In this document: piece after piece, positions 347 through 42,515 of the stretch
How the letters are laid out: every line of letters starts with the position of its first letter
How positions within the stretch are numbered: the first letter of the stretch is position 1
Sequence record: NC_005859.1
Strand: one strand, 5' to 3'
Source of the DNA: Escherichia phage T5
Length of the DNA: 64,000 nt
Program-made: the position numbers and the translations under genes
Notes under the pieces: model-generated
The model's input: only the letters and a program-made list of their open reading frames with translations
Database searches by the model: none
Told to the model about the DNA's origin: nothing

Positions 347-775
347 ATGTTTAATAATGTATTCTCTAAAGAAGCTAATCCAATATTGGTTAATTTTTGG
401 CGTACTCTTCCAGCCAACCTGTACAATGAGGCTATTAATGCTCTAAAAATATGGTGTGAGAATAATGAAATCTCCTTTGCTTTTAAAGGCGAGATTGAAG
501 AAGCTCCCTGTATTGGTTTAATTGTGCAGGTAGAGGATGGTCTTGAAGAGATTGTCGGCTGGAAAGAGTTAGATGAAATGGGCTTGGTTTTTGCATTAAA
601 CTATAAGCTGTTTATGCCTAATAAACACCGTATTGTTGTTAACTATAAAACCAGTGAATCTCCTGGCTTTCAAGTTAATGAACATTACGGTTGGTCTTAC
701 TCACCGGAAGAAGTAAATGATGGTATCCAAAAACTTCGTCGTTTTGGTTATCAAATTCCGGGTTTAACTGCCTAA
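347..775 (+). CDS. hypothetical protein, tandem paralog A
   Basis: 142-aa ORF; shares PCIG...W.EL..MGL..ALN..LF.P...RFGY.IPGL pattern with next ORF. Confidence 0.6.
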   Translation: MFNNVFSKEANPILVNFWRTLPANLYNEAINALKIWCENNEISFAFKGEIEEAPCIGLIVQVEDGLEEIVGWKELDEMGLVFALNYKLFMPNKHRIVVNYKTSESPGFQVNEHYGWSYSPEEVNDGIQKLRRFGYQIPGLTA

Positions 776-16404: not shown

Positions 16405-17753
16405 AGGTTGTTATATCTAATAAAGCCTATTTCAAGCCCGATGATGAACTTTGGGATTATTGTAGTAAGCAAACCACTTATCACATAGAGACAATGACTA
16501 GTAAATACCCTATTATGTATAAGAATAGTGGTGTTGTTGCCAAAGAGATTAAGTGGATTCCTATTACGCGTCTGGACTTATTAGATGCTAAAGGAATAAA
16601 ATACGAATTAGTCGATAAACGCACACTAGCACCGGTAGATATACCAAAACCTAAGTTCAAGCTGCGTGAAGAAGATCAGCTTCCAATATACGAAGAATGC
16701 GATGATACCTGTATTATTAATGGTAAGCCTGGGTTTGGTAAAACTATCCTAGCACTTGCACTTGCGTATAAATTTGGCCAGAAAACTTTAGTAATCTGTA
16801 CGAATACATCCATTCGTGAAATGTGGGCGGCAGAAGTTCGTAAATGGTTTGGGTTTGAACCAGGTATCATAGGTTCTGGGAAATACAATATTGATCCGCC
16901 AATTGTAGTCAGTAATATTCAAACAGTGAATAAACATGCGAATAATCTTTCTAAAGTATTCGGTACTGTTATAGTTGATGAAGTTCACCATTGTGTGGCT
17001 ACAACTTTCACTAACTTCCTAGAAATATCATGTGCTCGCTATAAAATTGGACTATCCGGTACACTAAAACGAAAAGACGGTTTACAAGTTATGTTCAAAG
17101 ATTTCTTTGGATATAAGATATTTAGCCCGCCGGTTAATAATACTGTTGCACCTACAATCCATAGGTACTCCGTGCCTGTTGAGCTATCAGGAAACCAAAA
17201 CGTACCGTGGGCATTACGTGCTAACGATGTGTATAATCATCCTGAATATCGAGAGACTATTATAAACCTAGCACATTTATATGTGAATATGGGACATAAA
17301 GTACTCATTGTAAGTGATAGAACAGAGTTAATCCAAACAATACTAGAAGCTCTTACACAGCGTGGTGTTACAACCTATGAAATTATAGGAGCAACCCACT
17401 TAGATGACCGATTAAAAATTCAGGAAGATATAGCAAAAGGCGGGCCGTGTGTGCTTGCAGCAGCTCAAAGCATCTTCTCTGAAGGTATTTCACTTAACGA
17501 GCTGTCTTGTTTAATAATGGGAAGCCTCATTAATAATGAATCTCTCATTGAACAGCTTGCAGGCCGTGTTCAACGTATTGTCGAGGGTAAACTCGACCCA
17601 ATCGTTGTAGATCTAATTATGAAAGGTGGCACTGGGTTAAGGCAGGCTTCTGGACGTATGGCAGTATATCGTAACAACGGGTGGAAAACTATTACTATGA
17701 CTCCGGAGAAAGCAGTTCAATTAGCTAAAATTGCATTTGGCAACAGCTCATAA
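16401..17753 (+). CDS. SF2 helicase (DEAD/DEAH-like), T5 D10-like
   Basis: 450 aa; Walker A GKPGFGKT; Walker B DEVHH; helicase C-terminal region. Confidence 0.8.
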   Translation: MKVVISNKAYFKPDDELWDYCSKQTTYHIETMTSKYPIMYKNSGVVAKEIKWIPITRLDLLDAKGIKYELVDKRTLAPVDIPKPKFKLREEDQLPIYEECDDTCIINGKPGFGKTILALALAYKFGQKTLVICTNTSIREMWAAEVRKWFGFEPGIIGSGKYNIDPPIVVSNIQTVNKHANNLSKVFGTVIVDEVHHCVATTFTNFLEISCARYKIGLSGTLKRKDGLQVMFKDFFGYKIFSPPVNNTVAPTIHRYSVPVELSGNQNVPWALRANDVYNHPEYRETIINLAHLYVNMGHKVLIVSDRTELIQTILEALTQRGVTTYEIIGATHLDDRLKIQEDIAKGGPCVLAAAQSIFSEGISLNELSCLIMGSLINNESLIEQLAGRVQRIVEGKLDPIVVDLIMKGGTGLRQASGRMAVYRNNGWKTITMTPEKAVQLAKIAFGNSS

Positions 17754-17765
17754 ATGATGTATAAT
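17737..17765 (+). promoter_or_regulatory. sigma70-type early promoter
   Basis: -35 TTGGCA, 17-bp spacer, -10 TATAAT, then ATATACATAAATTTGAGAGAG. Confidence 0.55.
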
Positions 17766-23887: not shown

Positions 23888-23895
23888 TAGAAAAA

Positions 23896-23930
23896 CCCCA
23901 GTGGACAAAATCCACTGGGGTTTCTTTTTT
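23896..23930 (+). terminator. rho-independent terminator ending the plus-strand module
   Basis: 10-bp stem ccccagtgga / tccactgggg, loop caaaa, then 10-nt T-run. Confidence 0.85.
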
Positions 23931-24084
23931 ATTAAACCTTACTAGCAAGTAAAGAATTAACTACTTGGGTTAAGTCTGCTATTTGCTTTTTAAAATCTCT
24001 ATTAGACAATTAGCTGAGTGTTTGTCATATAATATTGCTATTGAATACCTAGCTCGATGATGTTTCCCTGTAAAATGCTATGTG

Positions 24085-24116
24085 AAAATAAAGGGGCCTA
24101 ATGACCCCTCTTTTTT
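24085..24116. terminator. bidirectional terminator-like hairpin at convergent junction
   Basis: aggggcc..gacccct hairpin flanked by A-run on one side and T-run on the other; directly 3' of tail fibre gene. Confidence 0.55.
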
Positions 24117-27100
24117 ACATACCTAATTTATCCTCAATTGCAGATAACCTCGCTTCAAATCCTTTTGCGATAAAAAGGTTTAACTCTTCAAGGCGGAATG
24201 AGTAATGATCGCCAGCCGGGATTGTTTTGTAGATCGGGTTTTCAGTTCCATCTTCATTTGCAGGGCCGTATTCAGAAACAACCGTATGTTCATCCCATTT
24301 GTCATAGCAGATGAAACCATATTTGAACGGATCAAGCCCAAAACTTTCCATGATCTCAATTGCACGCTGCACGGTCAAACCGCAGTGTTCGCGAATATCA
24401 TTCATGTCAGCTTGCTCCTTCCACGTCCAAAACCCAATCTCCTTCGCAATAGCTTTGGCCGCTTCGGTTTCAGGATCGCTCATGGCTCGAACATCGTTCT
24501 TCAATCTAGCATCGGAGGTGTTAATTGTACCATTTACGGCGTAAACCTGCTTAACCCTACCAGATCCCCAGCCTAAGTTATATCTGTTATCTGCCATCGG
24601 CATTAACGTTCCGTTATGGTCAACCCCCCACCGTGGGAGACGAGAGATGCTTCCAGACTCACATGTCTCCAACACAACCTGTGTTGGCGTTGAAGTTGGA
24701 CCCCACCCCCCAGCGGACTTAATTGCTACACTACCACGCATTGAGTCGAACTTCTCTCCATCATGACCAGACGCACCAATATAGAAAGTCGAACCGGGTT
24801 GTGTAGCGCCAATATATCGCGTCGTATCTGCTAGACTACCATCACACCACATAGCTCGAATAGCTGGCGCCGAGGCCCCAGAACCACGTGGCGCAATCAA
24901 GTCAATCTCTGGTGCCTGGGGTGCAACAATTTTCAGCCCTCGTCCATCCTGTATACTCGGGGCGTTAAACCTAGGCACAGCAGCATTTAGTGTTTCAATG
25001 CTACGCACCAACCCAAGATCTGAGTGCATAGCTCCATCTGGAACTAGCCAAAGATCTCCATTATCTGACAGTCTGAATGCCGGAACCCTATCGCTAATCG
25101 TCTTACCTTTAGGAGTGACAAGTAAACGAATCCACCCCCCGTGATTGGTTGCCGATGTATCGCCAGCCCCCAGGAAATGCAATGCTGCATTGCTATGTTC
25201 AGTATATGTAGAACCTAACCACGGGCGTGAACCATAACCACCTAAAAGCTGGTTGTTCTTCGTTACGCTATTGGACGCTCCGCGAGTGTAGTTATGGAAC
25301 ACGGCAGAACCTCCAGCCGTATTCTCAATACCAAAAGAACACTCCGTTGCGCTATCGCCGATAAAGTTAACGCCAATCCCGGTTGTCGCGGTTGTCTCCT
25401 TCAGTGGTAAGCTCTGTGACGCGGTAACATCAATCTCTTTGCTATTGACACCACCCTTAACAACCAAATCACCATTTGGTGAAAGAATCATCTGACCTTC
25501 CGATATCCCATCACCATTTGGTCGAAAATATATCATTTGACCAGCTTTTGCGCTAATGATTGGAGAGCCTGCATTGTTGCAACGAATTGCCGCACCTTGA
25601 CCAAATGAGATTTTTGTGTCTCCAGCGCTGGCCGATGTGCAAGAAATTTCAACCTGGTTATCTAGCGACGTTGCCCCCGCTGGACGAAGCTGCAATAGTC
25701 TATCAGTTCCGCCAGAGGAAGATAAAATCAATCTACCTTCACCACCTTCACGAACTATAGAGCCGCGACCAATTACGATCCCCTTATCAGACGATGGCAT
25801 TTTTGATGTAGCGCCGCCACCAACACCGAGGTTTCCGTTCAGAACGCCAGCGCCACCAACCGAAAGCTCATTACCAGACAGGCGACCTGATACGCTCATT
25901 GACTTAACACTCACATCTTGGTTCATGCCGCTGACAACAGACTCACGCCAGGCTGACCACGTGCCATTGCTACAATAACGTGTAAACTCACGATTTAAGT
26001 CAGTGCCAAAAAGTCGCTGGCGGTTAGTGAAATCAGTGTCACCCACTTTGCGGATTGACTCGACGTAAAGAATGAAGTTACCACCTATTCCGCTTGGCTT
26101 GTTGGTAATGTTGTTGCCGCCACCAGCACTAACGCACTGGTAAACACGAATCGACCCGGGATCGCTTTTCTTAATCATCAAGGAGTTAAGATCAAGTTCC
26201 TGGTCACTAATGTTTTTAGCCTCCCAAGGTCCGGCGAATCCATTAGTAAAATCCATTAGCCCAGCAACAGAGAAACCAGCATCCATCATCTTGCGCGTTA
26301 CAATCTTGCTGTTTTGTTTATGATCAGGATTCTCACCAAAAGCTAGATCTCCATCAATATCAATACCTAGAAGCTTTGCGTTCATGTTATTGAGCTTGAA
26401 TCCAACCGACACATTAGAATCTGAGTCGCGCACTAACATGATGGGCGTATGTTGCTTACCACTGACTCGCAGGTTTGTAGCAGCTGTGTTTGTGTCATCG
26501 TTGGAAAATTCAGCAGTCCGAGATGAGATCTTATAACTGATCTTTGCATCTTTCGCTTCGATTCGCCCATCGTGACGCACGATAAAATCTCCAGTACTGG
26601 TGCCGTCGGAAGTCTTAGCCCTGATGTGGATTTCGCCAAGTGAGCCATTGTTTGGTGGTGACCAAATAACACCGCGCTCGCCTCCGTCGTTGTTCATGAA
26701 CCACAGATGGGCGTTTCCTTGTGTTGATTTTAACCTGATAGACGGCGTTTCTTTCCGTATATCAAGATCACCTGACATAACATCGCCTGCTTTTTTCACC
26801 TGCGCATCGTTAGTTACGTTGCCAAGTCCAACGTCCGATTTCGACGGTTTGTTTGCCGTGCCGTAGAGAGTGTTGGCGTAAACAATGTCACTTGCAAGGT
26901 TGCGGTCAGTGGTTGCTAGCACCTTAACGATTCCAGTGTTGTACTGCACGTTAATTGCAGCATGGGTATCTCCGCAATGAGAGTAAAAGCCAGAACCGTG
27001 ATCGTTAATATCAACGTTTGCACCTGATTCGCGAGCCGCTCGCCAGTATTGACCGCCATTAGCTTTAAGCTTGTTGATCAAGTCTACGTTGCTCTGCACG

Positions 27101-28305
27101 GAGCTATAGGAAAGACCGTTACCGCCAAGACCGAAAGCGCCTACAAGCATAGCATTTTCAAGGCCCAAGTCTGCCTTAGTAGGCTTATTTACCTGGTCGT
27201 AAATCCTTGCGGCTAGGCTTTCAATAAATCCTGATGGTTGAGTATCTTGACTAACAAATCCTTCTGGAATGTATAATTCAGTCCTGCCAGTCTGTGCCAG
27301 TACTGCAACCCTTGTTTCTTTAATAAAGGCTCGCTGATAGCACCAGACTTCGAAATAGCCATCACCTTCTACAAGGCCGTAACGCAGTTGGTTATCCCAG
27401 GCAAGGTTTGGTGAACCGAGTCGGCGAACACTTAAAAATTTAGTTATATTTTCACTGGTTACCCCTCTTGCATCGTTAAGACCGCGAGCAGATATCTCTA
27501 CAAAGTCAATATTACCGTAACTTGAACCGTAGTTACCGCCATTTGTAATCATTAGCGTTAGGTGACAGCTTACTGCACCTGGATCGGTAAGTTTAGCTAT
27601 CTTGACGTAAACGCTATTGTTGTTTGTACCGACGGGCCAGTCGTATTGCGTTACTGGGCTTACGAGTTCACTTGCCATATCGAGATATTCTTTCGCCTTA
27701 TTCTCTGACGTTTTGGCATTGGTTTCGCTTGTTTTTGCTGCTGTCTCGCTTTTCTTTGCATTGGTTTCTGATGTTTTTGCTGCTGTGGCAGAGTTTGCAG
27801 CCGCTGTTTTTGATGCATCCGCCGCCTGAGCGCTATTACCAGCATTTGTTTCAGATGTTTTTGCGGCCCTCGCGGAATTTTCTGCCGCCGTTGCAAAGGA
27901 AGATGCGCTACTAGCACTTGATGCTGCGTTCGTTTCTGAAGTTTTTGCAGCATTTTTACTATTATTGGCGTTAGTCTCGGAAGTTTTTGCAGCTTTAGCA
28001 CTATTAGCAGAAGCAGTAGCAGAGGAGGCAGACTGAGTTGCAGATTGCTGAGAAGATGTTGCGGAAATTTCTGCCTCATTCTCAGAATCTTTGGCATTTA
28101 ACTCTGATTGCTTAGCATTAATTTCAGACTGCTTAGCTGCAGGGCCGGATGCTTTAGAAGACTCTATCGCAGAGGTTACGTCTGCAGCAGTAATAGAGCT
28201 AATGGAATTAGAAAGCACAACTGTATACTTAGGATATTTACTTGCAGTTATACTATTCTGGTCCATAGTGACCATTTGCTGTAGAATTATTTTAGTTATA
28301 GCCAT
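24115..28305 (-). CDS. ltf: L-shaped tail fibre protein (pb1-like) with C-terminal intramolecular chaperone domain
   Basis: 1396 aa, same length as T5 pb1; N-terminal AKTSETNA-type repeats; C-terminal ...AMSDPETEAAKAIAKEIGFWTWKE... chaperone/autoprotease-like segment. Confidence 0.85.
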   Translation of the reverse strand: MAITKIILQQMVTMDQNSITASKYPKYTVVLSNSISSITAADVTSAIESSKASGPAAKQSEINAKQSELNAKDSENEAEISATSSQQSATQSASSATASANSAKAAKTSETNANNSKNAAKTSETNAASSASSASSFATAAENSARAAKTSETNAGNSAQAADASKTAAANSATAAKTSETNAKKSETAAKTSETNAKTSENKAKEYLDMASELVSPVTQYDWPVGTNNNSVYVKIAKLTDPGAVSCHLTLMITNGGNYGSSYGNIDFVEISARGLNDARGVTSENITKFLSVRRLGSPNLAWDNQLRYGLVEGDGYFEVWCYQRAFIKETRVAVLAQTGRTELYIPEGFVSQDTQPSGFIESLAARIYDQVNKPTKADLGLENAMLVGAFGLGGNGLSYSSVQSNVDLINKLKANGGQYWRAARESGANVDINDHGSGFYSHCGDTHAAINVQYNTGIVKVLATTDRNLASDIVYANTLYGTANKPSKSDVGLGNVTNDAQVKKAGDVMSGDLDIRKETPSIRLKSTQGNAHLWFMNNDGGERGVIWSPPNNGSLGEIHIRAKTSDGTSTGDFIVRHDGRIEAKDAKISYKISSRTAEFSNDDTNTAATNLRVSGKQHTPIMLVRDSDSNVSVGFKLNNMNAKLLGIDIDGDLAFGENPDHKQNSKIVTRKMMDAGFSVAGLMDFTNGFAGPWEAKNISDQELDLNSLMIKKSDPGSIRVYQCVSAGGGNNITNKPSGIGGNFILYVESIRKVGDTDFTNRQRLFGTDLNREFTRYCSNGTWSAWRESVVSGMNQDVSVKSMSVSGRLSGNELSVGGAGVLNGNLGVGGGATSKMPSSDKGIVIGRGSIVREGGEGRLILSSSGGTDRLLQLRPAGATSLDNQVEISCTSASAGDTKISFGQGAAIRCNNAGSPIISAKAGQMIYFRPNGDGISEGQMILSPNGDLVVKGGVNSKEIDVTASQSLPLKETTATTGIGVNFIGDSATECSFGIENTAGGSAVFHNYTRGASNSVTKNNQLLGGYGSRPWLGSTYTEHSNAALHFLGAGDTSATNHGGWIRLLVTPKGKTISDRVPAFRLSDNGDLWLVPDGAMHSDLGLVRSIETLNAAVPRFNAPSIQDGRGLKIVAPQAPEIDLIAPRGSGASAPAIRAMWCDGSLADTTRYIGATQPGSTFYIGASGHDGEKFDSMRGSVAIKSAGGWGPTSTPTQVVLETCESGSISRLPRWGVDHNGTLMPMADNRYNLGWGSGRVKQVYAVNGTINTSDARLKNDVRAMSDPETEAAKAIAKEIGFWTWKEQADMNDIREHCGLTVQRAIEIMESFGLDPFKYGFICYDKWDEHTVVSEYGPANEDGTENPIYKTIPAGDHYSFRLEELNLFIAKGFEARLSAIEDKLGM
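27660..28100 (-). repeat. in-frame tandem coding repeats in tail fibre N-terminus
   Basis: reiterated gcattggtttc.gatgtttttgc.gctgt DNA units encoding AAKTSETNA-like peptide repeats. Confidence 0.7.
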
Positions 28306-28568
28306 TATTGAGTTACTCCATCACTAATATAAACCTTGCCTTCCATAATACGGAAAGAACTAGCAGCACTACCAACAGCTGTTCTAGTAATAATTACATC
28401 ATAGTATCCAGCCAATCTCTGTCTAGGGTTATATCTATCTCTTTCTTTGGATGCTTTGGAAGCAATAGTAGTTACAGCACTAACAGGTAGGCTTATAGAT
28501 GCTACACCTTGTGCAGCATCAACAATAGCTGTAGTAAAAGATGCTACAGTTTCAGCCCCATCTTCCAA
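28305..28568 (-). CDS. collar protein-like, C-terminal fragment (frame 2 of an apparently split gene)
   Basis: 87-aa ORF with weak TTG start; overlaps the end of 28544..28729 in a different frame. Confidence 0.4.
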
Positions 28569-28729
28569 GCTGCTTTTAATACTCCCTCTAAGAGAGAGAA
28601 ATCAGTAAGATCTACTGGTTTGGATGTAGATGGGTAAACACTATCATCTACGTCCATAAATTGCATAAGTAAACCATAAGGTACGTTCTCGTCTACCACT
28701 AAATCAATAACTCTATTTTCTGTACTCAT
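28544..28729 (-). CDS. collar protein-like, N-terminal fragment
   Basis: 61-aa ORF with ATG start; with the next ORF would make ~140 aa if fused. Confidence 0.4.
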
Positions 28730-28733
28730 TATT

Positions 28734-30800
28734 TTACCTTATATGGATATACCCGTTTTGCAGGTCTATCTTCATTTTGTAGGATCCCTCTGGGTTAGAG
28801 GATAGTGCTGCTGCACGATCATATATAATATTTACACCAATTTGTGATAAGAAAGCATTGTTAGCAACAATTTTACTAGCAGTTACCGTGCCATTAACTA
28901 TCATATCTCCGTGTAAAACCATTGCAGGGCTAGTCCACGCCGAACCATTCCACTGTCTAGTAAAAGCTGTCCCAGGAGCACCACTCTTATATTCAGTTAA
29001 TACGTCATATTTAACAGGACCACTGCCGAAATTAGATGTAAAAAATGAATTAGCTTGTGAGTCATTCCATGCTGTTAAATTAGCAATAGCAAGAGAATAC
29101 ATTCCAGGACCACGTTGTCCTGTAGCCCCCGGCCTGCCATCAACACCTTCTGTACCACTCCATTGAACTACGTCAGACCAACTAGTTCCCGATACTAATT
29201 GATTAGTAACTGGGTCCAGAGTACCTGTAGAACAGTAAATATTCTGAGTATTAGATGTTCTATTTGGTGGAGTTTTAGACCAACCAGAAGGTGGGTATGC
29301 AGGACTTGTTGGTTTAGCAGGTAATGAAGTACCTATAATATAGATAAATACTGTTTGCTTCCCTTGTATACCCGTCTGTATATCAATATCACCATTTGGG
29401 GTACCAATTACAACCTCACTAGAGATCCTAAGTATATTACCATCATAACGAATATACTGTGTAGCATTACCAATATCTAATTTTGGTTTAGCAGTAACAT
29501 TATCCATGCCCATCCAGATACCGGATTTTGTATCGCCCCAAGTTTTACCCTGTGTATAAATTGCTGGGTTATCTTGACCGGTTAAATTAGTCATGACAAA
29601 GTTAGCAGCATTAATAGTTTTAGTTATTACACTCCCATCAACGTTAACTATCTTTTTAACAGGGTCAAAGGATATTGGTGCTTTTCCTTCTGCGTCTAGA
29701 AGACCTATATTAATAGCACCAGTTGCAGCGTCAATTAAGAAAGTTTGTTTCCAGGTAGATCCATCTTTAATTTTACCCTTAATGTACGCATAGTTTACTT
29801 CGATACCAGTTTCATTAACAAAACTATTGTCTAATGGTGTACTCTCATTTAATATAAATGTCTGTACTGCGGAATCAGTAACATCTTGAGCATCTGGTCC
29901 CCAGGCAATAGATGACACTTTAAATTTATGCTCTACTTTCCACGGGAATGATATAATTGTTGCCGACTGAGCAGCCCCCACGTTGATTTTTTGTGCCTTA
30001 GTCCATCCAGTTCTTACAAACTCTGCCGAATCTATATAAGATAGAACGAACTCACGAACATTAGCACCCGCACCCCTATTCCAGTCCCACTGCACACGTA
30101 AATCATAACGCTCTTTACCGTCTGCTATGCGCGCAGCTTTAAACACAATATTAATAGGAGCCGCAGGAGGTACAAAGTTATATCTAACTTCAAAGACATT
30201 AGGATATTCATAGTATCCTGATGAATCAATAGTAACACCGTCTGGTAGGCTTATTTGACCAGAAATTCTTACCTTATAGGATCCAATTGGCACACCACCA
30301 AACATAATAGTAGGCATTAGTGCACCAACGTAATATTTAACCCATGGATTATTGGCATTAGAATTATCTTTTAATTCTATAGTGCAATAATCGGCCTCCC
30401 CTGTAGTATCTATATAAACTATTGGTGCTCCAACACCAACATCTACTGGTTCTGACTCGCATCGAGCACCAGTGATTCTAGGTGCTGATTTCATTTTAAA
30501 AGTTTGCTTATCAGATAGATTAATTCCTATCTGTGCATTAAGAAGTTCAGAGTCTATTATGGAATCATAAAATGCACCCTGAACTTCATAAGTTGTTGTA
30601 GGTTTTAAGTTATTAATAGTTACAGAGAAAGTATCAATACCCGTGAAATCCCTACGAGTAACGTTGCTGCCTTCTTTAAGCCAAAATGATCTACCTATAA
30701 CGTCGTAATCAGAGTAGATAGAATGCTGGATATACGCCAACGTATATCCAGTTAAGACGCTATTTAGAACCATTTTAGCTGGTGCATTATTTGAAATCAT
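28734..30800 (-). CDS. baseplate/tail tip protein pb4-like
   Basis: 688 aa, same length as T5 pb4; beta-rich, fibronectin/Ig-like repeats. Confidence 0.75.
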
Positions 30801-33650
30801 TTAAATAGTAGCCCAACCAACAGATTGCTCTCCGTTTTCCCCTTCAGCTCGTATTCTAAACCGTAATTTACGATTGATACCTAGAGCCCCCGAGTTTAGT
30901 AAAGCAAAATCCGCCTTATTATATGTTAATAGATAATCATAGGTATAGACATCTTCTATTCTAACACTACGAAGCATTCTATCTTGAGAATCATAAATTT
31001 CCAAAGTATAGTAAATTTCAGGAATTATTTCTTCCTCTGGAATCTTATCCCAAGCAAGTTTAACATCCGGTCCAACAAATTCAGTTACGTCTCCTGAAGC
31101 AGTATTAACAACCCTAAAGTTACTAACTACGCTTAAGTTCTTTGCGGAGTTAAGATCTACAGATAGTGTAACTGGAGAACTACGTCTACCATTAATATCT
31201 ACTGCGCGTAGCTCAAAAATAGCTAAACCAGCAGGCTCCCCTATAATCTCCTGAATCATTCTCTCATTAGGATTATTTTCCAGTTGTTGAACTATGTAGG
31301 GATTAACATGTCCAGAATGTGCAATAGAATAGTATACTACGTTATTTGTAAGACTAGGAAGCCAGGATAGCTCACCATTCTTACCTATAGCACCAACTAC
31401 GCCACCTGGAGTAGGGGTGTACTTAAAGTCTCTAGGCGGTAGAACGTTATTACTAATATCAGGAATATCATTACCACTATTATCTACCTGTTCGGAATTA
31501 ATAAATACATCTTCTCCATACTCTTGGAGGACTAGATTAATTTTACCATCACGAGTATTTTCTACTTCGTCAACCAGGAAGAATTTGTCCTTCCAGCCGT
31601 AACGTTCATATGTGAAAGCAATAGGATCGTTAGGCTCTATACCTATAAATTTATAGGGTACGGAAAAACTTAAAGTACGGGAGTATCTAGATTTCTTAAG
31701 TTCCCTATCTGCGTAACTCCTAGCAGTGTAGTAATTAGTAATATTAGCAAAAGATAACTGAAGTTTCTTGTCAAGACCTTTATCCTGCTCTTTAAACTTC
31801 GAGTTATAGAACGTAATAGAGTTTGTTTTCCAGCTTAGTGCAGGGTCTACTAAGGATGCCTGTACTGAGTTAAACTTATTTCTACCAGTAGTATCAGATA
31901 AGTCTAAATCTCCATAAGTATCTAGAAAATTTATTCTCAGAGGATTCGTAGAATATTTTTCTACTGTTATTCTATACTCACCTGATAGGTTATTTATAGC
32001 TCCACCAAAGGATTCTAATATACCTTGAACGTTTTTAAAAACTGATTCAGAAGTATCCAGTATAGTATTTAGTTGAACTATTTGACGATTCTCAGATAGG
32101 GGGTCATTCCACCCAACGTAACGCCAGTAGGGCTGCCAACTAGTCTGGTAGGACTCGTCAATTATATCAAGTATTTTTGCCTCTGATATTACTTTTTGTA
32201 GCGGGAACTGATCTAAAGTAATATCAGCACCATAACGATCTGAAGTCAGGTAATCCATAAGTTGCCAGATACCATTTAAGCTAGTCTTATCTGCTTTTAT
32301 AGTACCATCAGAGTTGTATACTTTAACTTTCTTACCCTGCACTTCTGCGCTAATTTCAGGAATTTCAGTTCTATTCTCATTAATAGTAAATCTAACTATA
32401 GCATAAGCTGTATCCAATAACTTATAACGAGAATCCCAGTATTCCGGTCCGTTGCCGTTCTGATTCTGTAGATAAAATCCTTTTTTCTTAGCAATGTCTA
32501 CAAGTACTTGTGCAGCAGTCTGGTCTGGTTTTCCATGAAAGGTCCAGATTCTTATATCCCCATTACCATCGTTATACTTATATTCTTGTCCATGAACAGA
32601 AGGTTGAGATGTACTTGTACCAGCAGCTAGACGGTGCATTGTATCACCGACTATCTTTTTACGTCCAAAACAAGTTCTAGTATCGGAGTCTGTTTCATCA
32701 AAACATATCATAGGGCTATCTCCGATATAGAAATCTAGAAATCCATCTATCTCACCTTCTGCAAAAGCATATACTACGTATACTATATTAGGGTTATTTA
32801 GTTCCGTATCTGCAAAAATAGGTATACCAGGAATTTTCTGAACACCATATACTACAGGTATAAATTTAGCTGCTAAGTTAAAGTCTAGGTCAACTTCTTT
32901 AGTTACAGTCTCATAGTATTTTTTAAGGCTGTAGCTTCTAGACAGACCAAATAACTTTTTCTTAGACTGTAATTTATATCGTTCTTCTTTAACTTGGTAT
33001 TTAGCTAGAATAGTTGTACTTTTATTAGAGTGGAAGAATCCATAGTCTTCTTGGTACTCAGGACGTTTAGCCCCATTTGATGGCTGAAGAGTTCCATTAA
33101 CAACTTCAAGACCTCTATGAGATGCATCATCTGTATACCTGCCGTTTACTCTATCAAAATCATAAAATTGATTAGAACAGTTCCAAGTAATAACTGATGT
33201 ACCTATTCCGGAAGTATTAACGTTATCTTTTATTCCGCCTCCGGTAATTCTACCGCGGAAGAATAATAAAGGGCCATCTGTATCAGGATCTACAGGAAGA
33301 ATATTTCCTTCTTCATTGATTATTGCCTGATGGATAGTTATACCCCTATCTAGGAAAGATACTCCATTTTGAACTAGCTTTAGTACCTCATCTTCGGCAG
33401 TACCAGTTATTGTGAAGGATAGACTACCAATAGATAATTGACGGTTCTGTTTATGGGAGCTTATACTTTTTACTTTACCTGATCTGTACAAAATACCATT
33501 ATATGTAACATCTCTAAAATAATCTGTTAAGTAGATATAAGTAGCTGCGGAACCAGATGAACTTGGCAATTCAAGAGCTATAAGACATGCTGTCTTTAAT
33601 TTATCATGGGTATTCAGGTAATTTTTAGCACTATCGAGTATTTTCTTCAT
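30801..33650 (-). CDS. baseplate hub protein pb3-like
   Basis: 949 aa, same length as T5 pb3; directly downstream of Dit-like gene. Confidence 0.75.
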   Translation of the reverse strand: MKKILDSAKNYLNTHDKLKTACLIALELPSSSGSAATYIYLTDYFRDVTYNGILYRSGKVKSISSHKQNRQLSIGSLSFTITGTAEDEVLKLVQNGVSFLDRGITIHQAIINEEGNILPVDPDTDGPLLFFRGRITGGGIKDNVNTSGIGTSVITWNCSNQFYDFDRVNGRYTDDASHRGLEVVNGTLQPSNGAKRPEYQEDYGFFHSNKSTTILAKYQVKEERYKLQSKKKLFGLSRSYSLKKYYETVTKEVDLDFNLAAKFIPVVYGVQKIPGIPIFADTELNNPNIVYVVYAFAEGEIDGFLDFYIGDSPMICFDETDSDTRTCFGRKKIVGDTMHRLAAGTSTSQPSVHGQEYKYNDGNGDIRIWTFHGKPDQTAAQVLVDIAKKKGFYLQNQNGNGPEYWDSRYKLLDTAYAIVRFTINENRTEIPEISAEVQGKKVKVYNSDGTIKADKTSLNGIWQLMDYLTSDRYGADITLDQFPLQKVISEAKILDIIDESYQTSWQPYWRYVGWNDPLSENRQIVQLNTILDTSESVFKNVQGILESFGGAINNLSGEYRITVEKYSTNPLRINFLDTYGDLDLSDTTGRNKFNSVQASLVDPALSWKTNSITFYNSKFKEQDKGLDKKLQLSFANITNYYTARSYADRELKKSRYSRTLSFSVPYKFIGIEPNDPIAFTYERYGWKDKFFLVDEVENTRDGKINLVLQEYGEDVFINSEQVDNSGNDIPDISNNVLPPRDFKYTPTPGGVVGAIGKNGELSWLPSLTNNVVYYSIAHSGHVNPYIVQQLENNPNERMIQEIIGEPAGLAIFELRAVDINGRRSSPVTLSVDLNSAKNLSVVSNFRVVNTASGDVTEFVGPDVKLAWDKIPEEEIIPEIYYTLEIYDSQDRMLRSVRIEDVYTYDYLLTYNKADFALLNSGALGINRKLRFRIRAEGENGEQSVGWATI

Positions 33651-34261
33651 AGACTTTCCCTCAAGGAAAGTGAAATACCAGAGTAAGTACCATTGTTATT
33701 TAGGGTAGAACCGAAGGAATCTCCGTTCATTAGCTTAGTTCTAAATAAGATACCATTAAAAACTGGTTTTTCACTACCCGTAGTAGTAATAAATAGATCA
33801 GGATACAGGGAAATATTCCATACGTTTCCTGAACTACTAAAATTTGTTATTTTATAAACTTTAGGATGAGTAGATAATTTAAATAAATCCCCAGCTTTTG
33901 GCTGCCCAGTTAGGGTTCCATTAGTATTTAGTATAATTTGAGAACCTTTTTGACCGGCGGGTATGGTAACACTCTTGGTATCACCACGTACTCTAAATGC
34001 TTCATACTGAGGCAGGAGTACATCTAAATAATCTCCAGTTCTTTTATACTCTAAAAGCCTAGAGTCTAGAAATGCATATTCATCCGGGAAAAGTTCCGGG
34101 TATGAGATATTAATTCCCCAGTATTGAGCAGATATTTTAACCTCTTTGACTTTACCATTAGGTAATTCATCACGAATCATAGGGTCGTTATCTACTAAAT
34201 TGACGCTTTCAAAACCTAACCCTGGGTACTCTGGGTTCGTGTATGGATCTGGTAGTCTCAT
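33647..34261 (-). CDS. distal tail protein (Dit, pb9-like)
   Basis: 204 aa, same length as T5 pb9; between tape measure and hub genes. Confidence 0.75.
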   Translation of the reverse strand: MRLPDPYTNPEYPGLGFESVNLVDNDPMIRDELPNGKVKEVKISAQYWGINISYPELFPDEYAFLDSRLLEYKRTGDYLDVLLPQYEAFRVRGDTKSVTIPAGQKGSQIILNTNGTLTGQPKAGDLFKLSTHPKVYKITNFSSSGNVWNISLYPDLFITTTGSEKPVFNGILFRTKLMNGDSFGSTLNNNGTYSGISLSLRESL

Positions 34262-34288
34262 AGTTAATTTCTCCTCTTTAATAACAAT

Positions 34289-34317
34289 ATTATAATAGTA
34301 TTGGAAAATTTTATCAA
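34289..34317 (-). promoter_or_regulatory. sigma70-like promoter upstream of Dit gene
   Basis: minus strand -35 TTGATA, 17-bp spacer, -10 TATAAT, then RBS gaggag. Confidence 0.35.
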
Positions 34318-34332
34318 GAAATTTTTATTTTT

Positions 34333-34363
34333 CCATAAAGAAAAGGAGGACATAAAGTCCTCC
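34333..34363 (-). terminator. rho-independent terminator after tape measure gene
   Basis: minus-strand hairpin ggaggac-tttat-gtcctcc followed by TTTTCTTT. Confidence 0.6.
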
Positions 34364-34370
34364 TCCAATA

Positions 34371-37300
34371 TTAAGAATTACCAAGAGATTTCAGGGTGGT
34401 TCCATTCTCATTAAGAGCCAGTTCCACGGCATCTCTGAAAGCAGTACTGTTATTCGATGCAAAATCTCTGAAGCTTGCCGCATCCATAGTGCTGATATTC
34501 AGGATAATAGGTCTTCCAGAGGTAGTCTTTGATCCATCGGAAAGCTGATCATTAGGTGTAGCTTTCATAGGAACCATAGGAGTTACTACTTCGGTACCAT
34601 GCTCACCCATTTGATAACTAACTCCAGGGTACATCATACCGCCCTCAGCACGCGGAACAAATGAGTTGGCATTACCAATACCTTTATCACCGCGTAGGTA
34701 GGATAGTTCTCCTGAACTAGCTTGCATAGATACATCAACATTTTTCTGTCGCTCACCTAGAGTTAAGTACTGAGTAGTATCTGCCCCAGAATCCGCAATA
34801 GAAGACATGCCAGATGCAGAAGATGCTTGAGCAAGAGCTAACGCACCTGCTAAACCTGCCGCCACCATCAAAGGAATAGAGAACGGGTATGGTACAGCTG
34901 TTGCTGCTTGCATTACTGCTACTGCTGTCTGAATGATGATCTGTTTCTTAGCTGCATCTTGCTGAATCTTCAGCTTTTCAGCTTCTAATTTTTTCAGCTT
35001 AGCTTTAGATGCCTCAGATTTGCCATCACGCTTCTGTTCTGCTGCAATAGCCTGATCAATTGCACTAACCTGCTGACTAGTACTGTATTGAATCATAGAA
35101 GCTACAGTCTGCATACCGGAAGCAATCATAGACGTAGTATCTAAAGATCCCTGAGAGAACTGAATCATAGCATTAGTTAAATTACCCATGCTTTGAGCCA
35201 CAGCGGTTGCTTCGGAATTTAATTCAGACAACTTAGAGATCGCCTGGTCATAAGAAGCCATTCTATTTTGCATATCAGCAAAATCTTTATCTTCTCCGAT
35301 TAACCCAGTAGTAGGAGTATAAGTAGCCCCAACAGAAGATCCTACCTGTTGCTGCATTTGACTTTCTCGCTGCTTTTTAAGCTGCTCTAAAGCTGCTGAA
35401 GTTTTATAAATCTCATTACGATACTTAAGCTCCTCTTCCGTATTACCCTTAGATAGTTCCAGCTGTTGCTGGAGAATGGATAATCTCTCCGTAAGAATTT
35501 GAGATTGACCAGTAACATTTCTCTGCGTTTGACTGACCTCTAGTGCATCCATGAGGGCTGATACATGTGAGGCTGTTCCCTGTTTCTCCGCTTCCCATAT
35601 TTCTCTACTTATTTGTGCTTGAGCACGTCTAGACTGCTCTACTTTAGCTTGACCATCCGCTTGTTTAGAGTATAATTCCGTTTTTTCCTGCTCTAACTGC
35701 AGCTCTAGTCTTAACTGCGCCAAACGATACTGAGTACTCGTCATAGTGCGGTCATTCAGAAGAGCTATTTCTCTATCAACACCAAGAATCTTATCAGTAT
35801 AGTCTTTAGTCTTCTTAGCATTTTCGAATCCCTGGGCTTTAGTATTAAGAATTTCTGTCTCTATCTTAGCTACTTGTTTTAATGCTTCGGGATCATTAGG
35901 GTTAATAGCTAGCAACGCTTTTGCCGCCGTAAGCTGTTCCTGCTGTTGTCGTAGTAACACCTCTCTAGCTGCTGCTTCTGCCTTGGCCTTATCCTTAGTC
36001 TGGTTGTAAACCTCATCTTTACGCTTAGCTACTTCCAGTGCATTTTGCTCACTCTTATCCATAGCAGTTACATATTCTGATAGACCTTTCTGTGCAGCCT
36101 TCATTTGGTCTAGGCTTGAGAAACCTAGATTTAGGTTCTTAACTAGAGTATCCGCACTTTGCCCGGTTACTTTAGAAGTATCTTCTACTGCTTTTACAAC
36201 ACTATTTAGGTCACTAGAGGCTTTTTTAGCGTTAGTAATACTACTTGCCGCCATTCTTATGTTATTTGCAGTATCACTAGAGCTTTTCTTCAGGAAATCA
36301 AAGTTCTTCTGTATCTCTGATACAGCTTTGAGGTTATTAGGATCAACTTCGAATACTCCTTTGTCTCCTGGAACAGCAGTATCAGCATACTTCATCTTAG
36401 CGCCTAACTGCTCAGCTAGTTTGCCATTACGTAACAGAGCTTCTCCAGTATCCTGTACCGCTTGTCTTAGAACCTTCTCAGTTTTAGTGCGTTCTTCTAT
36501 CTCTTTGTTTTGACGAGCCAATTCATTAGTGAGTTGTACTACTAACTTATTACTCTCATCACCACCAATACCGCCAGCAGTAAGGGCATTGGCGATAGGA
36601 GCAGTAGCCGCCTGTTTTGCCTTAAGATCATCCAATTGCTGCTTAAGCTCTTGAGCTTTCTTAACACGTTCTTCGCTTTCTTTAAGATATGTATCTAGAT
36701 CTTCTCGCGCCCCTACAGCATTCTCTATTAAAGCTGTAACGTTTTCAGCTGGAGTAGTTTTAGCGGATGCACTACGTGCCATTGCGGAAACTCTCATCTG
36801 GGAAGATTTAGTTTGGTATAAGAAAGTATTAAGGGTATCCATAACAGGATTTAAGTATGTAGCAGCACTTTGTTGTAAACTTCTTAGAGCTGAGTTAGCA
36901 TTGGCAGCAAATTGTTCCCAAGAGGTTGCCTTAAGAGCATCATCTAGGTATCCAAATCTACGAGTAGACTCTGCAATAACTTCATTTGCATACGCTTGTT
37001 GTTTCTGGTATGTAGTTAAACTATCTACAGTATATTTAATACCTGTACTGGTAGCATTTAATTGTTTAACGTAATTTTCATACGCATCGTTAAGACGAAT
37101 AGTAACACCAAGTTCATCCAGAAGTTCGATTTCTTGTTTTGATACACCCTTAATTACACGGTTAAGTGCATCAGTCATATCAACACCAAGAACAGCAGCC
37201 GCACGACGTGCTACTAAACCGAACTGCTCTAGTTGTTCGCTGTCAAATCCATAAGCGGAAGCAGAGGATGCTTGACGCATAGCCTCTTCAAAGGATATAG

Positions 37301-38030
37301 CACCATTAGTAGCGTTTTGTAGTGATAAAGCTAGTGTCTGTACCGGTGTACCTGTCATGGTGCCGACAATAGTACCGAACTGTTCCAGCCTATTTAGCTG
37401 GTCACCTACTTTTAGGCTCTCAAAAGCAGTCTGTAGGACGAATACGTTAGAAGCAAGAGCTGCGTACATAATAGGTAACCTACCGCCGATCTTAGCCATT
37501 GCTGCAAAGTCACGAGTAGCTCCGCGTGCGGAACCGGAAGTATTACCTAAAGCTCTAGAAGCCCTACCAGCAGCACCAGCAGTGTCATTAAAACCCTTAG
37601 ATGTACCACCTAAAGCTCTATTGGTGTCATACAATCTATCTTGAACTTTCTCTGTTGCAGCTGCAACATCATTACCCATTGCTTTAACAGATCTAGAAAC
37701 CCCATCGAATCCAATTTCTAGTTTATCTGTTACTTCAATAAGTTGGATAGCCAGGTAATCTAGCTTATCACCAATACCATCAATGGATTTAGTGATACCA
37801 GCCATACCCCTACTAGCCTGCATTTTAGTAAGACTTTTTGCTGCTCTATCTGCTGCCCTCTCAATGGAGTATAGAGTTCTGGGCATTTTACCTAACTGTT
37901 CATTTGTCAGTTCGGAAGCAGCAGCAGCATTTTCTAATGCATCAGATACGTTTTCAATAGACTTTGCAGTACGGGTTGCCCCCTTCTGTTTAACGTCTAT
38001 TAGTAATTCTCGTATTAGCTTATCAGTCAT
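34371..38030 (-). CDS. tape measure protein (pb2-like)
   Basis: 1219 aa, same length as T5 pb2; long coiled-coil; hydrophobic segment near C-terminus. Confidence 0.85.
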   Translation of the reverse strand: MTDKLIRELLIDVKQKGATRTAKSIENVSDALENAAAASELTNEQLGKMPRTLYSIERAADRAAKSLTKMQASRGMAGITKSIDGIGDKLDYLAIQLIEVTDKLEIGFDGVSRSVKAMGNDVAAATEKVQDRLYDTNRALGGTSKGFNDTAGAAGRASRALGNTSGSARGATRDFAAMAKIGGRLPIMYAALASNVFVLQTAFESLKVGDQLNRLEQFGTIVGTMTGTPVQTLALSLQNATNGAISFEEAMRQASSASAYGFDSEQLEQFGLVARRAAAVLGVDMTDALNRVIKGVSKQEIELLDELGVTIRLNDAYENYVKQLNATSTGIKYTVDSLTTYQKQQAYANEVIAESTRRFGYLDDALKATSWEQFAANANSALRSLQQSAATYLNPVMDTLNTFLYQTKSSQMRVSAMARSASAKTTPAENVTALIENAVGAREDLDTYLKESEERVKKAQELKQQLDDLKAKQAATAPIANALTAGGIGGDESNKLVVQLTNELARQNKEIEERTKTEKVLRQAVQDTGEALLRNGKLAEQLGAKMKYADTAVPGDKGVFEVDPNNLKAVSEIQKNFDFLKKSSSDTANNIRMAASSITNAKKASSDLNSVVKAVEDTSKVTGQSADTLVKNLNLGFSSLDQMKAAQKGLSEYVTAMDKSEQNALEVAKRKDEVYNQTKDKAKAEAAAREVLLRQQQEQLTAAKALLAINPNDPEALKQVAKIETEILNTKAQGFENAKKTKDYTDKILGVDREIALLNDRTMTSTQYRLAQLRLELQLEQEKTELYSKQADGQAKVEQSRRAQAQISREIWEAEKQGTASHVSALMDALEVSQTQRNVTGQSQILTERLSILQQQLELSKGNTEEELKYRNEIYKTSAALEQLKKQRESQMQQQVGSSVGATYTPTTGLIGEDKDFADMQNRMASYDQAISKLSELNSEATAVAQSMGNLTNAMIQFSQGSLDTTSMIASGMQTVASMIQYSTSQQVSAIDQAIAAEQKRDGKSEASKAKLKKLEAEKLKIQQDAAKKQIIIQTAVAVMQAATAVPYPFSIPLMVAAGLAGALALAQASSASGMSSIADSGADTTQYLTLGERQKNVDVSMQASSGELSYLRGDKGIGNANSFVPRAEGGMMYPGVSYQMGEHGTEVVTPMVPMKATPNDQLSDGSKTTSGRPIILNISTMDAASFRDFASNNSTAFRDAVELALNENGTTLKSLGNS

Positions 38031-38839
38031 CTAATGTTTTCCTGTATAAAACTATTAGTTAAAGATAGTATAGTTTCTAGCTCAGAGTAGTGACAAGTTT
38101 CGGTGTACCCATCTGGAAGGATACGTTTATCTAATACTCCTGTGTTTACTGAGTCCTTTACTACTTTTTCTAGCCCCCTAGCCATAGAACCATAAGAAAA
38201 AGTATGAGAAAAAATTACCGAGTGCTCGCATAGTGATTTATTGCTCTGCTGCCTCATTCTCTCTAGTACATCCTTACCAGTGATCCCAAATTTTAGAAAG
38301 TGAGTCCCTTGATACGTTAATTTCTGTATATAAAAAGTAGCTGGTATATTAGGATTAAATCCTCCTGAAGCACAATCAGGACACCCTGTATCGTGATTAA
38401 TAAAATGGTGTATAGACACATCCCAGATACAACCATCTTTTAAACACTTAAGTATAATCTTAGAATCTTTATTAATATAGGTGGAAGACCAAGATAGAAA
38501 GTTATATCCTTTCTCGGCACACTTACTTTTTATTTGTTCTTCTCTTTCTTCCTTCGTCCATCTAGCTTTGCCTGCGCATGCAGGGCATTTTTGGGCAGTA
38601 ATCCGTAAAAAGTTATCCAACCTAGGAGACCAGGTGTAATAACATTTATTACACTTAAGTGTAAGGGTGCTTTTAATATTAGTGTACTCACCTATCCAGC
38701 CAACAAAGGATAAATTTTTATCATTGCAAATGTTGCTTATCTGAGACTCTCTATCCTGTTTAGTAATCTTCTTTCCCATACTATACCAACCTATATGTTT
38801 ATAAATAAAAAAGGCTCTGGGCATATCACCCAGAGCCAA
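38027..38839 (-). CDS. putative homing endonuclease-like protein (two zinc-ribbon modules, T5orf172/GIY-YIG-like C-terminus)
   Basis: 270 aa; two CxxC...CPxC modules; paralog of 48023..48856. Confidence 0.55.
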   Translation of the reverse strand: MALGDMPRAFFIYKHIGWYSMGKKITKQDRESQISNICNDKNLSFVGWIGEYTNIKSTLTLKCNKCYYTWSPRLDNFLRITAQKCPACAGKARWTKEEREEQIKSKCAEKGYNFLSWSSTYINKDSKIILKCLKDGCIWDVSIHHFINHDTGCPDCASGGFNPNIPATFYIQKLTYQGTHFLKFGITGKDVLERMRQQSNKSLCEHSVIFSHTFSYGSMARGLEKVVKDSVNTGVLDKRILPDGYTETCHYSELETILSLTNSFIQENIR

Positions 38840-39708: not shown

Positions 39709-40604
39709 TATTTTCTTTCTCCAAAGAAGTTTATTTCTACAGGGTCTGAATCAGCAGTAGGGATTACGTCATACTCTACCTGATACAAATCTGAGAAGTT
39801 TAGGCGTTTTGAAATACGTGCTAAAGGGAATGTTATAGAAACATATTTATTTTTAATAATTAGTGGAGTTCTTGTTTCAGGATCTAGATTCAAGAACTTA
39901 TCTCCTACCAATCTCTTAACATAATAGAAAGCTAGCGTTGCGGAAGCATTCATCTCATTGACATAAGCTCGTTTATTAGTATAAATTTTATTTATATCAA
40001 ATATATTTCTATCTTCTCTCCAAGAACATTGTTGCTGGAAAGACATAGATGCTGAAATTAGCGCTGGCAACGGAGAGCTATTAGTGTACACAGCAGGAGC
40101 GCTATATGGAAGAACTTCACCCTGTGTAATTGTATATCCATCTCGGAAAGTAGATACTTCAGAGAATTTTCCAGACTCAATACCAACATTTAGGATCGGT
40201 ATACTCTTATCTAGAGAAAAATCAACTGTTGATACATAACAGTTTTCGAAATAAATACAGCTATTATTATGATTAATAATATACATATTGAACATAATAG
40301 GTTCAATATTGGGAGTATTTCTTGGCAAAAATAAAGAATTTCCCTCACGCGTGAATCCCATCCAATCAAAGAAGTTAGATTCAATAAGCGTAGTACTGAA
40401 ATTTATTGCCAATGAAATAGATGAAGGATCTTGAGCATTAATAATAGAGTCTGCATAGTTTGTACGATTATGAATAGTACGTCTAAGAGTTTTAAACTCT
40501 TGAAAAGACGTACTAGCGTCATAGTTAGAGAGGGCATCGAAATGATACCCTCTACCGTCATACTCAATAACTATTTTAGACTCTCGCATGAGAGAATAAA
40601 ACAT
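39708..40604 (-). CDS. hypothetical structural protein
   Basis: 298-aa ORF coupled downstream of tail tube gene. Confidence 0.55.
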   Translation of the reverse strand: MFYSLMRESKIVIEYDGRGYHFDALSNYDASTSFQEFKTLRRTIHNRTNYADSIINAQDPSSISLAINFSTTLIESNFFDWMGFTREGNSLFLPRNTPNIEPIMFNMYIINHNNSCIYFENCYVSTVDFSLDKSIPILNVGIESGKFSEVSTFRDGYTITQGEVLPYSAPAVYTNSSPLPALISASMSFQQQCSWREDRNIFDINKIYTNKRAYVNEMNASATLAFYYVKRLVGDKFLNLDPETRTPLIIKNKYVSITFPLARISKRLNFSDLYQVEYDVIPTADSDPVEINFFGERK

Positions 40605-42029: not shown

Positions 42030-42515
42030 TTATCTGCGAAGTGACCTACGTGGAGGCTGATACCTCACTGTTACATTTATTTCTGCTAAACCATATGGGG
42101 CCAGTAGACCCTCATCTGTACTAACTGATGTAATGATCATATCAGTTGCCTCACATGGGAAGGTCGATCCATTAGGTTTACTAACAGTATATTCTAAATT
42201 TCCACCTGTGTCAATAACGGTTTTTATATCCGCTACGAGTTTTTCAAGTTGCTCTTGAATGTCTGTTTTCTCTTTATCGTACACCAGGATTGGAAGTTCT
42301 AAAAACATCCACTGTTGGCCTGAAGGAAGATACTGCCCAGTTTCAGTTCCGATATGAACTGCTACATAAGGAAACTCTCGTATTTCCTCAAATTTATAAG
42401 TTTGACGAGAAACGTTTCCATATAGGTTATTAAAATATTCGTCAGGTTGAGAACCATCCATTTGTTTAGAGATTCGGTCAACCATAGCTTGTGCAATACT
42501 TGTTCTATGATCCAT
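42030..42515 (-). CDS. tail terminator-like protein
   Basis: 161-aa ORF directly upstream of tail tube gene. Confidence 0.55.
   Translation of the reverse strand: MDHRTSIAQAMVDRISKQMDGSQPDEYFNNLYGNVSRQTYKFEEIREFPYVAVHIGTETGQYLPSGQQWMFLELPILVYDKEKTDIQEQLEKLVADIKTVIDTGGNLEYTVSKPNGSTFPCEATDMIITSVSTDEGLLAPYGLAEINVTVRYQPPRRSLRR

Follow-up and report, generated by a model that had tools for sequence, protein, structure and literature searches.

Background

Like PG25, the promoter of bacteriophage T5 considered here, the late promoters of the T4 type drive virion structural genes late in infection. They work with gp55/gp33, are marked by the motif TATAAATA and have no −35 element. The late transcription of T5 differs from this type in that it relies on the σ70 holoenzyme, and host RNA polymerase with σ70 has been reported to transcribe all three gene classes of this phage (Klimuk et al. 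2020, Viruses 12:807, PMC7472727). The same paper credits the first identification of the T5 promoters to in vitro transcription (Gentz and Bujard 1985).

The early promoters of T5 (e.g., PN25, the “T5 promoter” of pQE vectors) have much in common with PG25: they are strong σ70 promoters, the DNA upstream of them is A/T-rich, and they are served by unmodified host RNA polymerase. In the legend of Fig. S5 of Klimuk et al., an UP element is marked on early and late promoters alike (PMC7472727). [quoted passage not shown] The timing differs as well, with ∼20 min for the early promoters and 30 min or later for PG25.

Another late promoter, PJ5, lies before the tail-tube gene pb6. It agrees with PG25 in its late class and kinetics, its score of 11/12 against the σ70 consensus, its 17-nt spacer and its good −35 element (TTGACA-17-TATACT). 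Unlike PG25, which is intergenic and directly behind a terminator, PJ5 is found inside the T5p142 coding sequence and has no terminator in front. The layout at PG25 is the same as that of a canonical Rho-independent terminator followed by a re-initiation promoter in phage and bacterial operons: a GC stem-loop and a U-run come after the stop codon, the promoter follows tens of nucleotides downstream, and the outcome is differential expression within a co-oriented block. In this respect there is nothing unusual about the site.

Identity of the promoter at the pb2/pb9 junction

The window, i.e., the whole 64-kb stretch of DNA that was analyzed, contains on its minus strand the junction between the genes of the tape measure protein (TMP, pb2) and the distal tail protein (Dit, pb9). 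A sequence search found the 1.4 kb around the site to be 100% identical to Escherichia phage T5, AY692264. This record has a regulatory feature, “promoter P-G 25” (83971..84045), whose exact 75-mer occurs at the pb2/pb9 junction (Table 1). The feature extends from the A/T tract across the two hexamers into the leader, where it ends 2 nt short of the pb9 ATG; the hairpin upstream of PG25 is outside it and is unannotated in the T5 record. Being identical in sequence and position, the PG25 of Gentz and Bujard (1985) and the site described here are the same object. We put the probability that the promoter and terminator at the TMP/Dit junction are the T5 late promoter PG25 and an intrinsic terminator preceding it at about 93%.

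PG25 is already known: it has been named, cloned, sequenced, annotated, mapped in infected cells and exploited in biotechnology. Klimuk et al. report a primer-extension product for it in infected cells (PMC7472727), and a constitutive promoter library made for Cupriavidus necator derives from four parents, one of which is Pg25. A search of the full-text literature found no relevant transcriptomics, TSS or Term-seq data for T5 or Tequintavirus, and no 3′-end mapping data for T5. Overall, the present work brings little that is new; what it adds is the conservation of the terminator–promoter module at the TMP/Dit junction across the Demerecviridae.

The sequence-only reading from which the analysis departed had placed a terminator hairpin, TTGATA-17-TATAAT and the Dit RBS on the minus strand between the TMP and Dit genes, and the sequence, the scans and Pfam confirm that all three are present. 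The range given for them, 34289..34363, was otherwise accurate, although its start falls short of the full stem by 3 nt and the RBS is omitted. As for the genes on either side, Pfam TMP_C matches the C-terminus of pb2, and pb9 contains three pb9-specific Pfam domains (PF21425, PF21430 and PF21424).

Table 1. Features of the pb2/pb9 junction and its surroundings (positions are those of the window)
Feature	Position	Strand	Basis
pb2, tape measure / pore-forming tail tip CDS, 1219 aa, upstream gene	34371..38030	−	ORF, AY692264 (D18-19 pb2), Pfam
Intrinsic-terminator-like hairpin, GGAGGAGGAC/TTTAT/GTCCTCCTTT	34342..34366	−	terminator scan, fold
T-rich tail, TTTCTTTAT	34335..34343	−	sequence; invariant across Markadamsvirinae
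P-G 25 feature, 75 nt	34263..34337	−	AY692264 annotation and exact 75-mer match
A/T-rich upstream tract, TATGGAAAAATAAAAATTTC, ∼−55 to −36, UP-element-like	34318..34337	−	sequence
−35 hexamer, TTGATA (5/6)	34312..34317	−	sequence and consensus scan
−10 hexamer, TATAAT (6/6), 17 nt past −35	34289..34294	−	sequence and consensus scan
Predicted transcription start, A, 7 nt past −10	34282	−	register of GenBank features
Shine-Dalgarno, AAGAGGAG, 9 nt before pb9 ATG	34271..34278	−	sequence
pb9, distal tail protein (Dit) CDS, 204 aa, first gene of PG25 unit	33647..34261	−	ORF, annotation, Pfam
pb3 (BHP), pb4, p132, pb1 (L-shaped fibre), downstream genes	24115..33650	−	ORFs and annotation
Bidirectional terminator hairpin, convergent early (+) / late (−) genes	23891..23925	both	terminator scan
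PJ5, late promoter before tail-tube gene pb6	42160..42234	−	AY692264 feature

Terminator hairpin and promoter elements

The hairpin starts 4 nt past the pb2 stop codon TAA (34373..34371) and is followed by TCTTTAT. It consists of a core of 8 Watson-Crick base pairs with two additional G-U pairs (10 pairs, 5 of them GC, and a loop of 5 according to the scanner), and its fold of −18.6 kcal/mol compares with −10.0 ± 2.5 in shuffles (z = −3.5). With a GC stem, a U-rich tract (at least five T in eight) and a location downstream of a stop codon, it has the hallmarks of an intrinsic terminator. A C breaks up its tail, TTTCTTTAT, so that termination may be partial.

PG25 follows 24 nt downstream of the hairpin. 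Between the terminator tail and the −35 hexamer, the A/T-rich tract reads GGAAAAATAAAAATTTC on the minus strand; the upstream tract, TATGGAAAAATAAAAATTTC, ends in the TC of an extended −35, “tcTTGA”, and the segment from −50 to −40 is AAAAATAAAAA, invariant in the Markadamsvirinae. In the consensus scan, TTGATA-17-TATAAT scores 11/12 with the optimal spacer of 17 nt, which makes it a σ70 promoter by sequence. Further on, the minus strand reads ATTGTTATTAAAGAGGAGAAATTAACT from the −10 hexamer to the pb9 ATG. The PG25 and PJ5 features in GenBank, both of 75 nt, share one register, with the −35 at 21–26, the −10 at 44–49 and an A at 56; the transcription start is accordingly predicted at the A listed in Table 1.

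Could this be a promoter of the T4 type that needs no −35 element? This candidate was rejected: PG25 has a conserved −35 at optimal spacing, its −10 region is TATAATAT and not TATAAATA, and TTGAnn is kept at 16–17 nt in all lineages.

Could all these motifs be the product of chance? The spacer between the two genes is 76% A+T, and promoter-like matches of at least 9/12, which mean little alone, show no excess in an 18-kb region (46, vs 52 in shuffles). Both facts fit the view that the promoter- and terminator-like motifs are functionless chance matches in AT-rich intergenic DNA. PG25 scores higher than that threshold, however, and only 0.4% of the dinucleotide shuffles of the spacer, composition-matched as they are, reach 11/12 (P = 0.004). 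In the 64-kb window, 10 matches of at least 11/12 were found, whereas 3.0 ± 1.5 are expected (100 dinucleotide shuffles); four of these ten are annotated T5 promoters, namely PH22, the pb5 upstream promoter, PJ5 and PG25. Chance is further opposed by the strong purifying selection on the spacer relative to its flanks, by the recurrence of the terminator–promoter layout in five diverged genera (see below) and by the published primer-extension product (PMC7472727). Its probability is close to nil, and the option of “chance in AT-rich DNA” left by the sequence-only reading is excluded by the shuffles together with the conservation.

Two other 11/12 matches to the σ70 consensus are located on the plus strand, antisense to late genes: 35649..35676 inside pb2 and 39958..39985 inside p140. 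They may be spurious, with ∼3 chance matches expected in the window.

Conservation across T5-like phages

The spacer from the TMP stop codon to the Dit ATG was extracted from 17 other phages, which with T5 makes 18 phages in six lineages. At a level of at least 95% identity, this 109-nt spacer is matched in 399 of 444 records of T5-like phages, and the 1.4-kb region in only 9 of 442. In 11 genomes of Tequintavirus and Epseptimavirus, the spacer is 92–100% identical to that of T5, whereas the flanking 300 nt of coding DNA are 74–84% identical, except in one very close relative, and the third codon positions in these flanks 45–67%. The substitutions in the spacer are confined to the nucleotides just past the stop codon, the hairpin loop, the promoter spacer and the initial transcribed region. 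The stem, the T-tract, the UP tract, the hexamers, the Shine-Dalgarno sequence and its spacing to the ATG are invariant in 12 phages of the Markadamsvirinae. PJ5 is unsuitable as a control in this comparison, which is confounded by its location inside a coding sequence.

The −35 element is kept as TTGAnn in all 18 phages, 16–17 nt from a −10 that is TATAAT in 17 of them and TATAGT in Vibrio phage D13. The distant genera are represented by Klebsiella Sugarlandvirus, Providencia Priunavirus, Proteus Novosibvirus, Vibrio Thalassavirus and Vibrio phage D13; their spacers could not be aligned to that of T5 by sequence (MAFFT) and were compared by annotation of their elements. All five have a GC-rich stem of different sequence and a T-run directly after the TMP stop codon, and then TTGAnn, 16–17 nt and TATAAT or TATAGT, with scores of 10–12/12 (individually P = 0.0005–0.03). 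The match in PR1 is perfect (12/12), and the T-runs that follow the stem are clean in Direpillow8 and Vibrio D13. Independent annotators have marked a terminator and/or a promoter at the TMP/Dit junction of AKFV33, PR1, Sugarland and Erwinia phage KEY, and in these four phages the equivalent hairpin is annotated “terminator”. Because the layout is kept across distant genera and has been annotated independently, the terminator–promoter module is an ancestral, selected feature of the Demerecviridae.

This recurrence also bears on what the hairpin does. It might mainly stabilize the 3′ end of the pb2 mRNA, act as a barrier to its processing or insulate PG25 from occlusion, with most upstream transcription reading through. 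The C that interrupts the U-tract fits such a role, as does the organization of the T5 late genes as one long co-oriented block; moreover, stable 3′ hairpins commonly guard transcripts against exonucleases. However, in every lineage examined the TMP gene is immediately followed by a GC stem and a T-run, an arrangement that characterizes intrinsic termination, and the two roles are not mutually exclusive. We regard a hairpin that acts mainly in this way as unlikely and favor an intrinsic terminator.

A search for a late-specific motif common to PG25, PJ5 and the PG25 equivalents of the other genera gave none beyond “tcTTGA”, the A/T-rich tract and an AT-rich discriminator. The 109-nt spacer is conserved more uniformly than a promoter and a terminator strictly need, and a further constraint may act on it. 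It might hold a site or a DNA structure by which the early-to-late switch of T5 silences PG25 until ∼30 min; this idea is a long shot, and, if it were true, comparative footprinting of PG25-type spacers could pinpoint the determinant of the late class.

Alternatively, the conservation would reflect a feature that has nothing to do with transcription, i.e., a small protein, a structured RNA or a recombination linker between tail modules. Conservation of the whole 109 nt, and not of the hexamers alone, is in line with this, and so is an ATG in the hairpin loop, preceded by GGAGGAGGA, which opens a frame of 29 codons ending 3 nt before the pb9 ATG. This 29-aa ORF was nevertheless rejected: 7 of the 12 sampled relatives (phA11, DT57C, NBSal003, ev219, SP3, E22 and AKFV33) have GAG in place of its ATG, and in the Epseptimavirus phages a 1-nt deletion disrupts the frame. 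An Rfam scan of the junction gave two chance matches, both below threshold (27.8 vs 45 bits and 19.7 vs 50 bits), the leader RNA is unstructured, and every conserved block coincides with a known part (stem, T-tract, UP tract, −35, −10 or Shine-Dalgarno sequence). A feature of this kind is very improbable as the source of the conservation, which we ascribe to the terminator and the promoter.

One relative deserves a separate mention. In the partial genome of Salmonella phage SP3 (NC_048001; stretch L010, ∼720..745), the spacer is intact through the −10 hexamer, the Dit RBS and ATG are deleted, and Dit is annotated in a truncated form of 94 aa. This deletion is probably a sequencing or assembly error and not biology.

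Leader and ribosome binding site

The leader of PG25 has 21 nt, ATTAAAGAGGAGAAATTAACT, is unstructured in the RNA fold and includes a strong Shine-Dalgarno sequence. The RBSII region of the vectors pQE30 and pCA24N has the same sequence. The identity goes further: the leader together with the first two codons of pb9, ATTAAAGAGGAGAAATTAACTATGAGA (34256..34282, minus strand), is letter-for-letter the “synthetic ribosomal binding site RBSII” with ATGAGA. Vectors of the pQE30/pCA24N type carry RBSII and ATGAGA, the latter standing for the MR of MRGS-His6 (PMC11880969, PMC6116040, PMC8666340). From this match it follows that a widely used “synthetic” RBS is the natural translation start of T5 pb9. 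RBSII is said to have been modeled, in Roche/Bujard patents, on the RBS under PG25.

Timing of expression

When is PG25 active? In a primer-extension time course of infection, the transcripts of PG25 and PJ5 are seen only from 30 min and then accumulate, and those of the early promoters peak at 20 min (PMC7472727). On this published evidence, PG25 belongs to the late temporal class; that σ70 RNA polymerase recognizes it has likewise been established in the literature. Time-resolved mapping of 5′ ends, proposed in the sequence-only reading as a check, is thus already in print (Klimuk et al. 2020) and reveals a real σ70 promoter of late class; the in vitro transcription proposed beside it has also been published, in work that Klimuk et al. 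attribute to Gentz and Bujard (1985).

The sequence-only reading had also envisaged early or independent expression of the distal tail genes, and the two parts of this proposal fare differently. Independent expression is supported, in that the distal tail genes have a start site of their own inside the late block, whereas early expression is contradicted by the appearance of the transcripts. One could still argue that PG25 is early or constitutive, and that the distal tail and baseplate genes are expressed before, or independently of, the late program: its near-consensus σ70 sequence would be recognized without a phage factor, and outside the phage the C. necator libraries were built with it as a constitutive parent. 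During infection, however, it is first seen at 30 min, with kinetics like those of PJ5 and after the 20-min peak of the early promoters (PMC7472727), which leaves this argument highly unlikely and PG25 a late promoter.

The expectation that late genes should lack a good −35 element rests on a premise of the T4 type, which does not hold for T5, where PG25 and PJ5 both have one. The late promoters of T5 are ordinary σ70 promoters with good −35 elements, and this corrects a mistaken premise. It is also clear that the hexamers of PG25 do not explain its silence until late. The real question is then another one: how does T5 delay the firing of such promoters? The sequence of this site by itself brings the answer no closer. 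Classical genetics implicated the early genes C2, D5 and D15 in late timing. How T5 times its promoters is a recognized question in the literature, and gpT5.026 has been implicated quantitatively by Klimuk et al. (PMC7472727).

Proposed mechanism and extent of the transcription unit

The elements at the junction suggest the following sequence of events. RNA polymerase coming from PJ5, or from further upstream, would transcribe pb6, p140, the chaperone genes, T5p137 and pb2, and the GC hairpin with its U-tract after the pb2 stop codon would terminate most of the incoming transcripts, or at least a part of them. The σ70 holoenzyme would re-initiate at PG25, 24 nt past the hairpin, aided by the A/T-rich, UP-like tract. 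With a start probably at the A of position 34282, the transcript would have a 21-nt unstructured leader and a very strong RBS before pb9; it probably runs through pb9, pb3, pb4, p132 and pb1 to the bidirectional terminator at 23.9 kb. Such a module would uncouple the dosage of the baseplate, collar and fiber proteins from that of the tape measure, and the hairpin may shield PG25 from occlusion by upstream transcription. What we infer here is how efficient the terminator is, at which nucleotide transcription starts and how far it extends, as well as the dosage rationale.

How compelling is the dosage rationale? Each virion contains a pb2 trimer, a pb9 hexamer, trimers of pb3 and pb4, a p132 dodecamer and three pb1 fibers (PMC10038345). 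Since pb3 and pb4 are needed in three copies, like pb2, the rationale is not compelling on copy number alone.

The ORFs of pb3, pb4, p132 and pb1 are tightly packed or overlapping, and the terminator scan found no convincing minus-strand terminator among them; these four genes are presumed to be co-transcribed from PG25. The hairpin that adjoins the end of pb1 has stems of 13–16 bp and T-runs on both strands. It is the probable end of the early operon as well as of the PG25 unit, which would span ∼10.4 kb.

Other features of the region

Upstream of the junction, the minus strand has a further promoter-like site at 38067..38096, TTGTCA-18-TATACT (10/12), in the 3′ end of T5p137 and 36 nt upstream of the pb2 start codon. 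It could be a dedicated promoter for the tape measure gene. A strong terminator hairpin with 11 pairs, 7 of them GC, and a T6 run is found at 38837..38813 on the minus strand, inside the annotated 5′ end of T5p137. The annotated TTG start of T5p137 is at 38839; a start at the ATG of position 38779, past the terminator, is more plausible and would give 250 aa. In the T5p137 protein, Pfam recognizes a CapR homology domain and a treble-clef zinc finger (PF21817 and PF14311), and the position of its gene, between the tail-chaperone genes and the tape measure gene, is unusual.

At the other end of the late block, the G+C content of the pb1 gene region (24001..28000) is 0.46–0.47, compared with 0.36–0.41 in the surrounding late region. 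This rise suggests a different evolutionary origin or horizontal exchange.

A last observation comes from the plus strand. There, at 17737..17765, an unannotated 11/12 match, TTGGCA-17-TATAAT, straddles the end of D10 and is followed by ATATACATAAATTTGAGAGAG; the “putative promoter” of the record is annotated ∼90 nt further downstream. We take ATATACATAAATTTGAGAGAG to resemble the region that is conserved downstream in T5 early promoters, PN25 among them.
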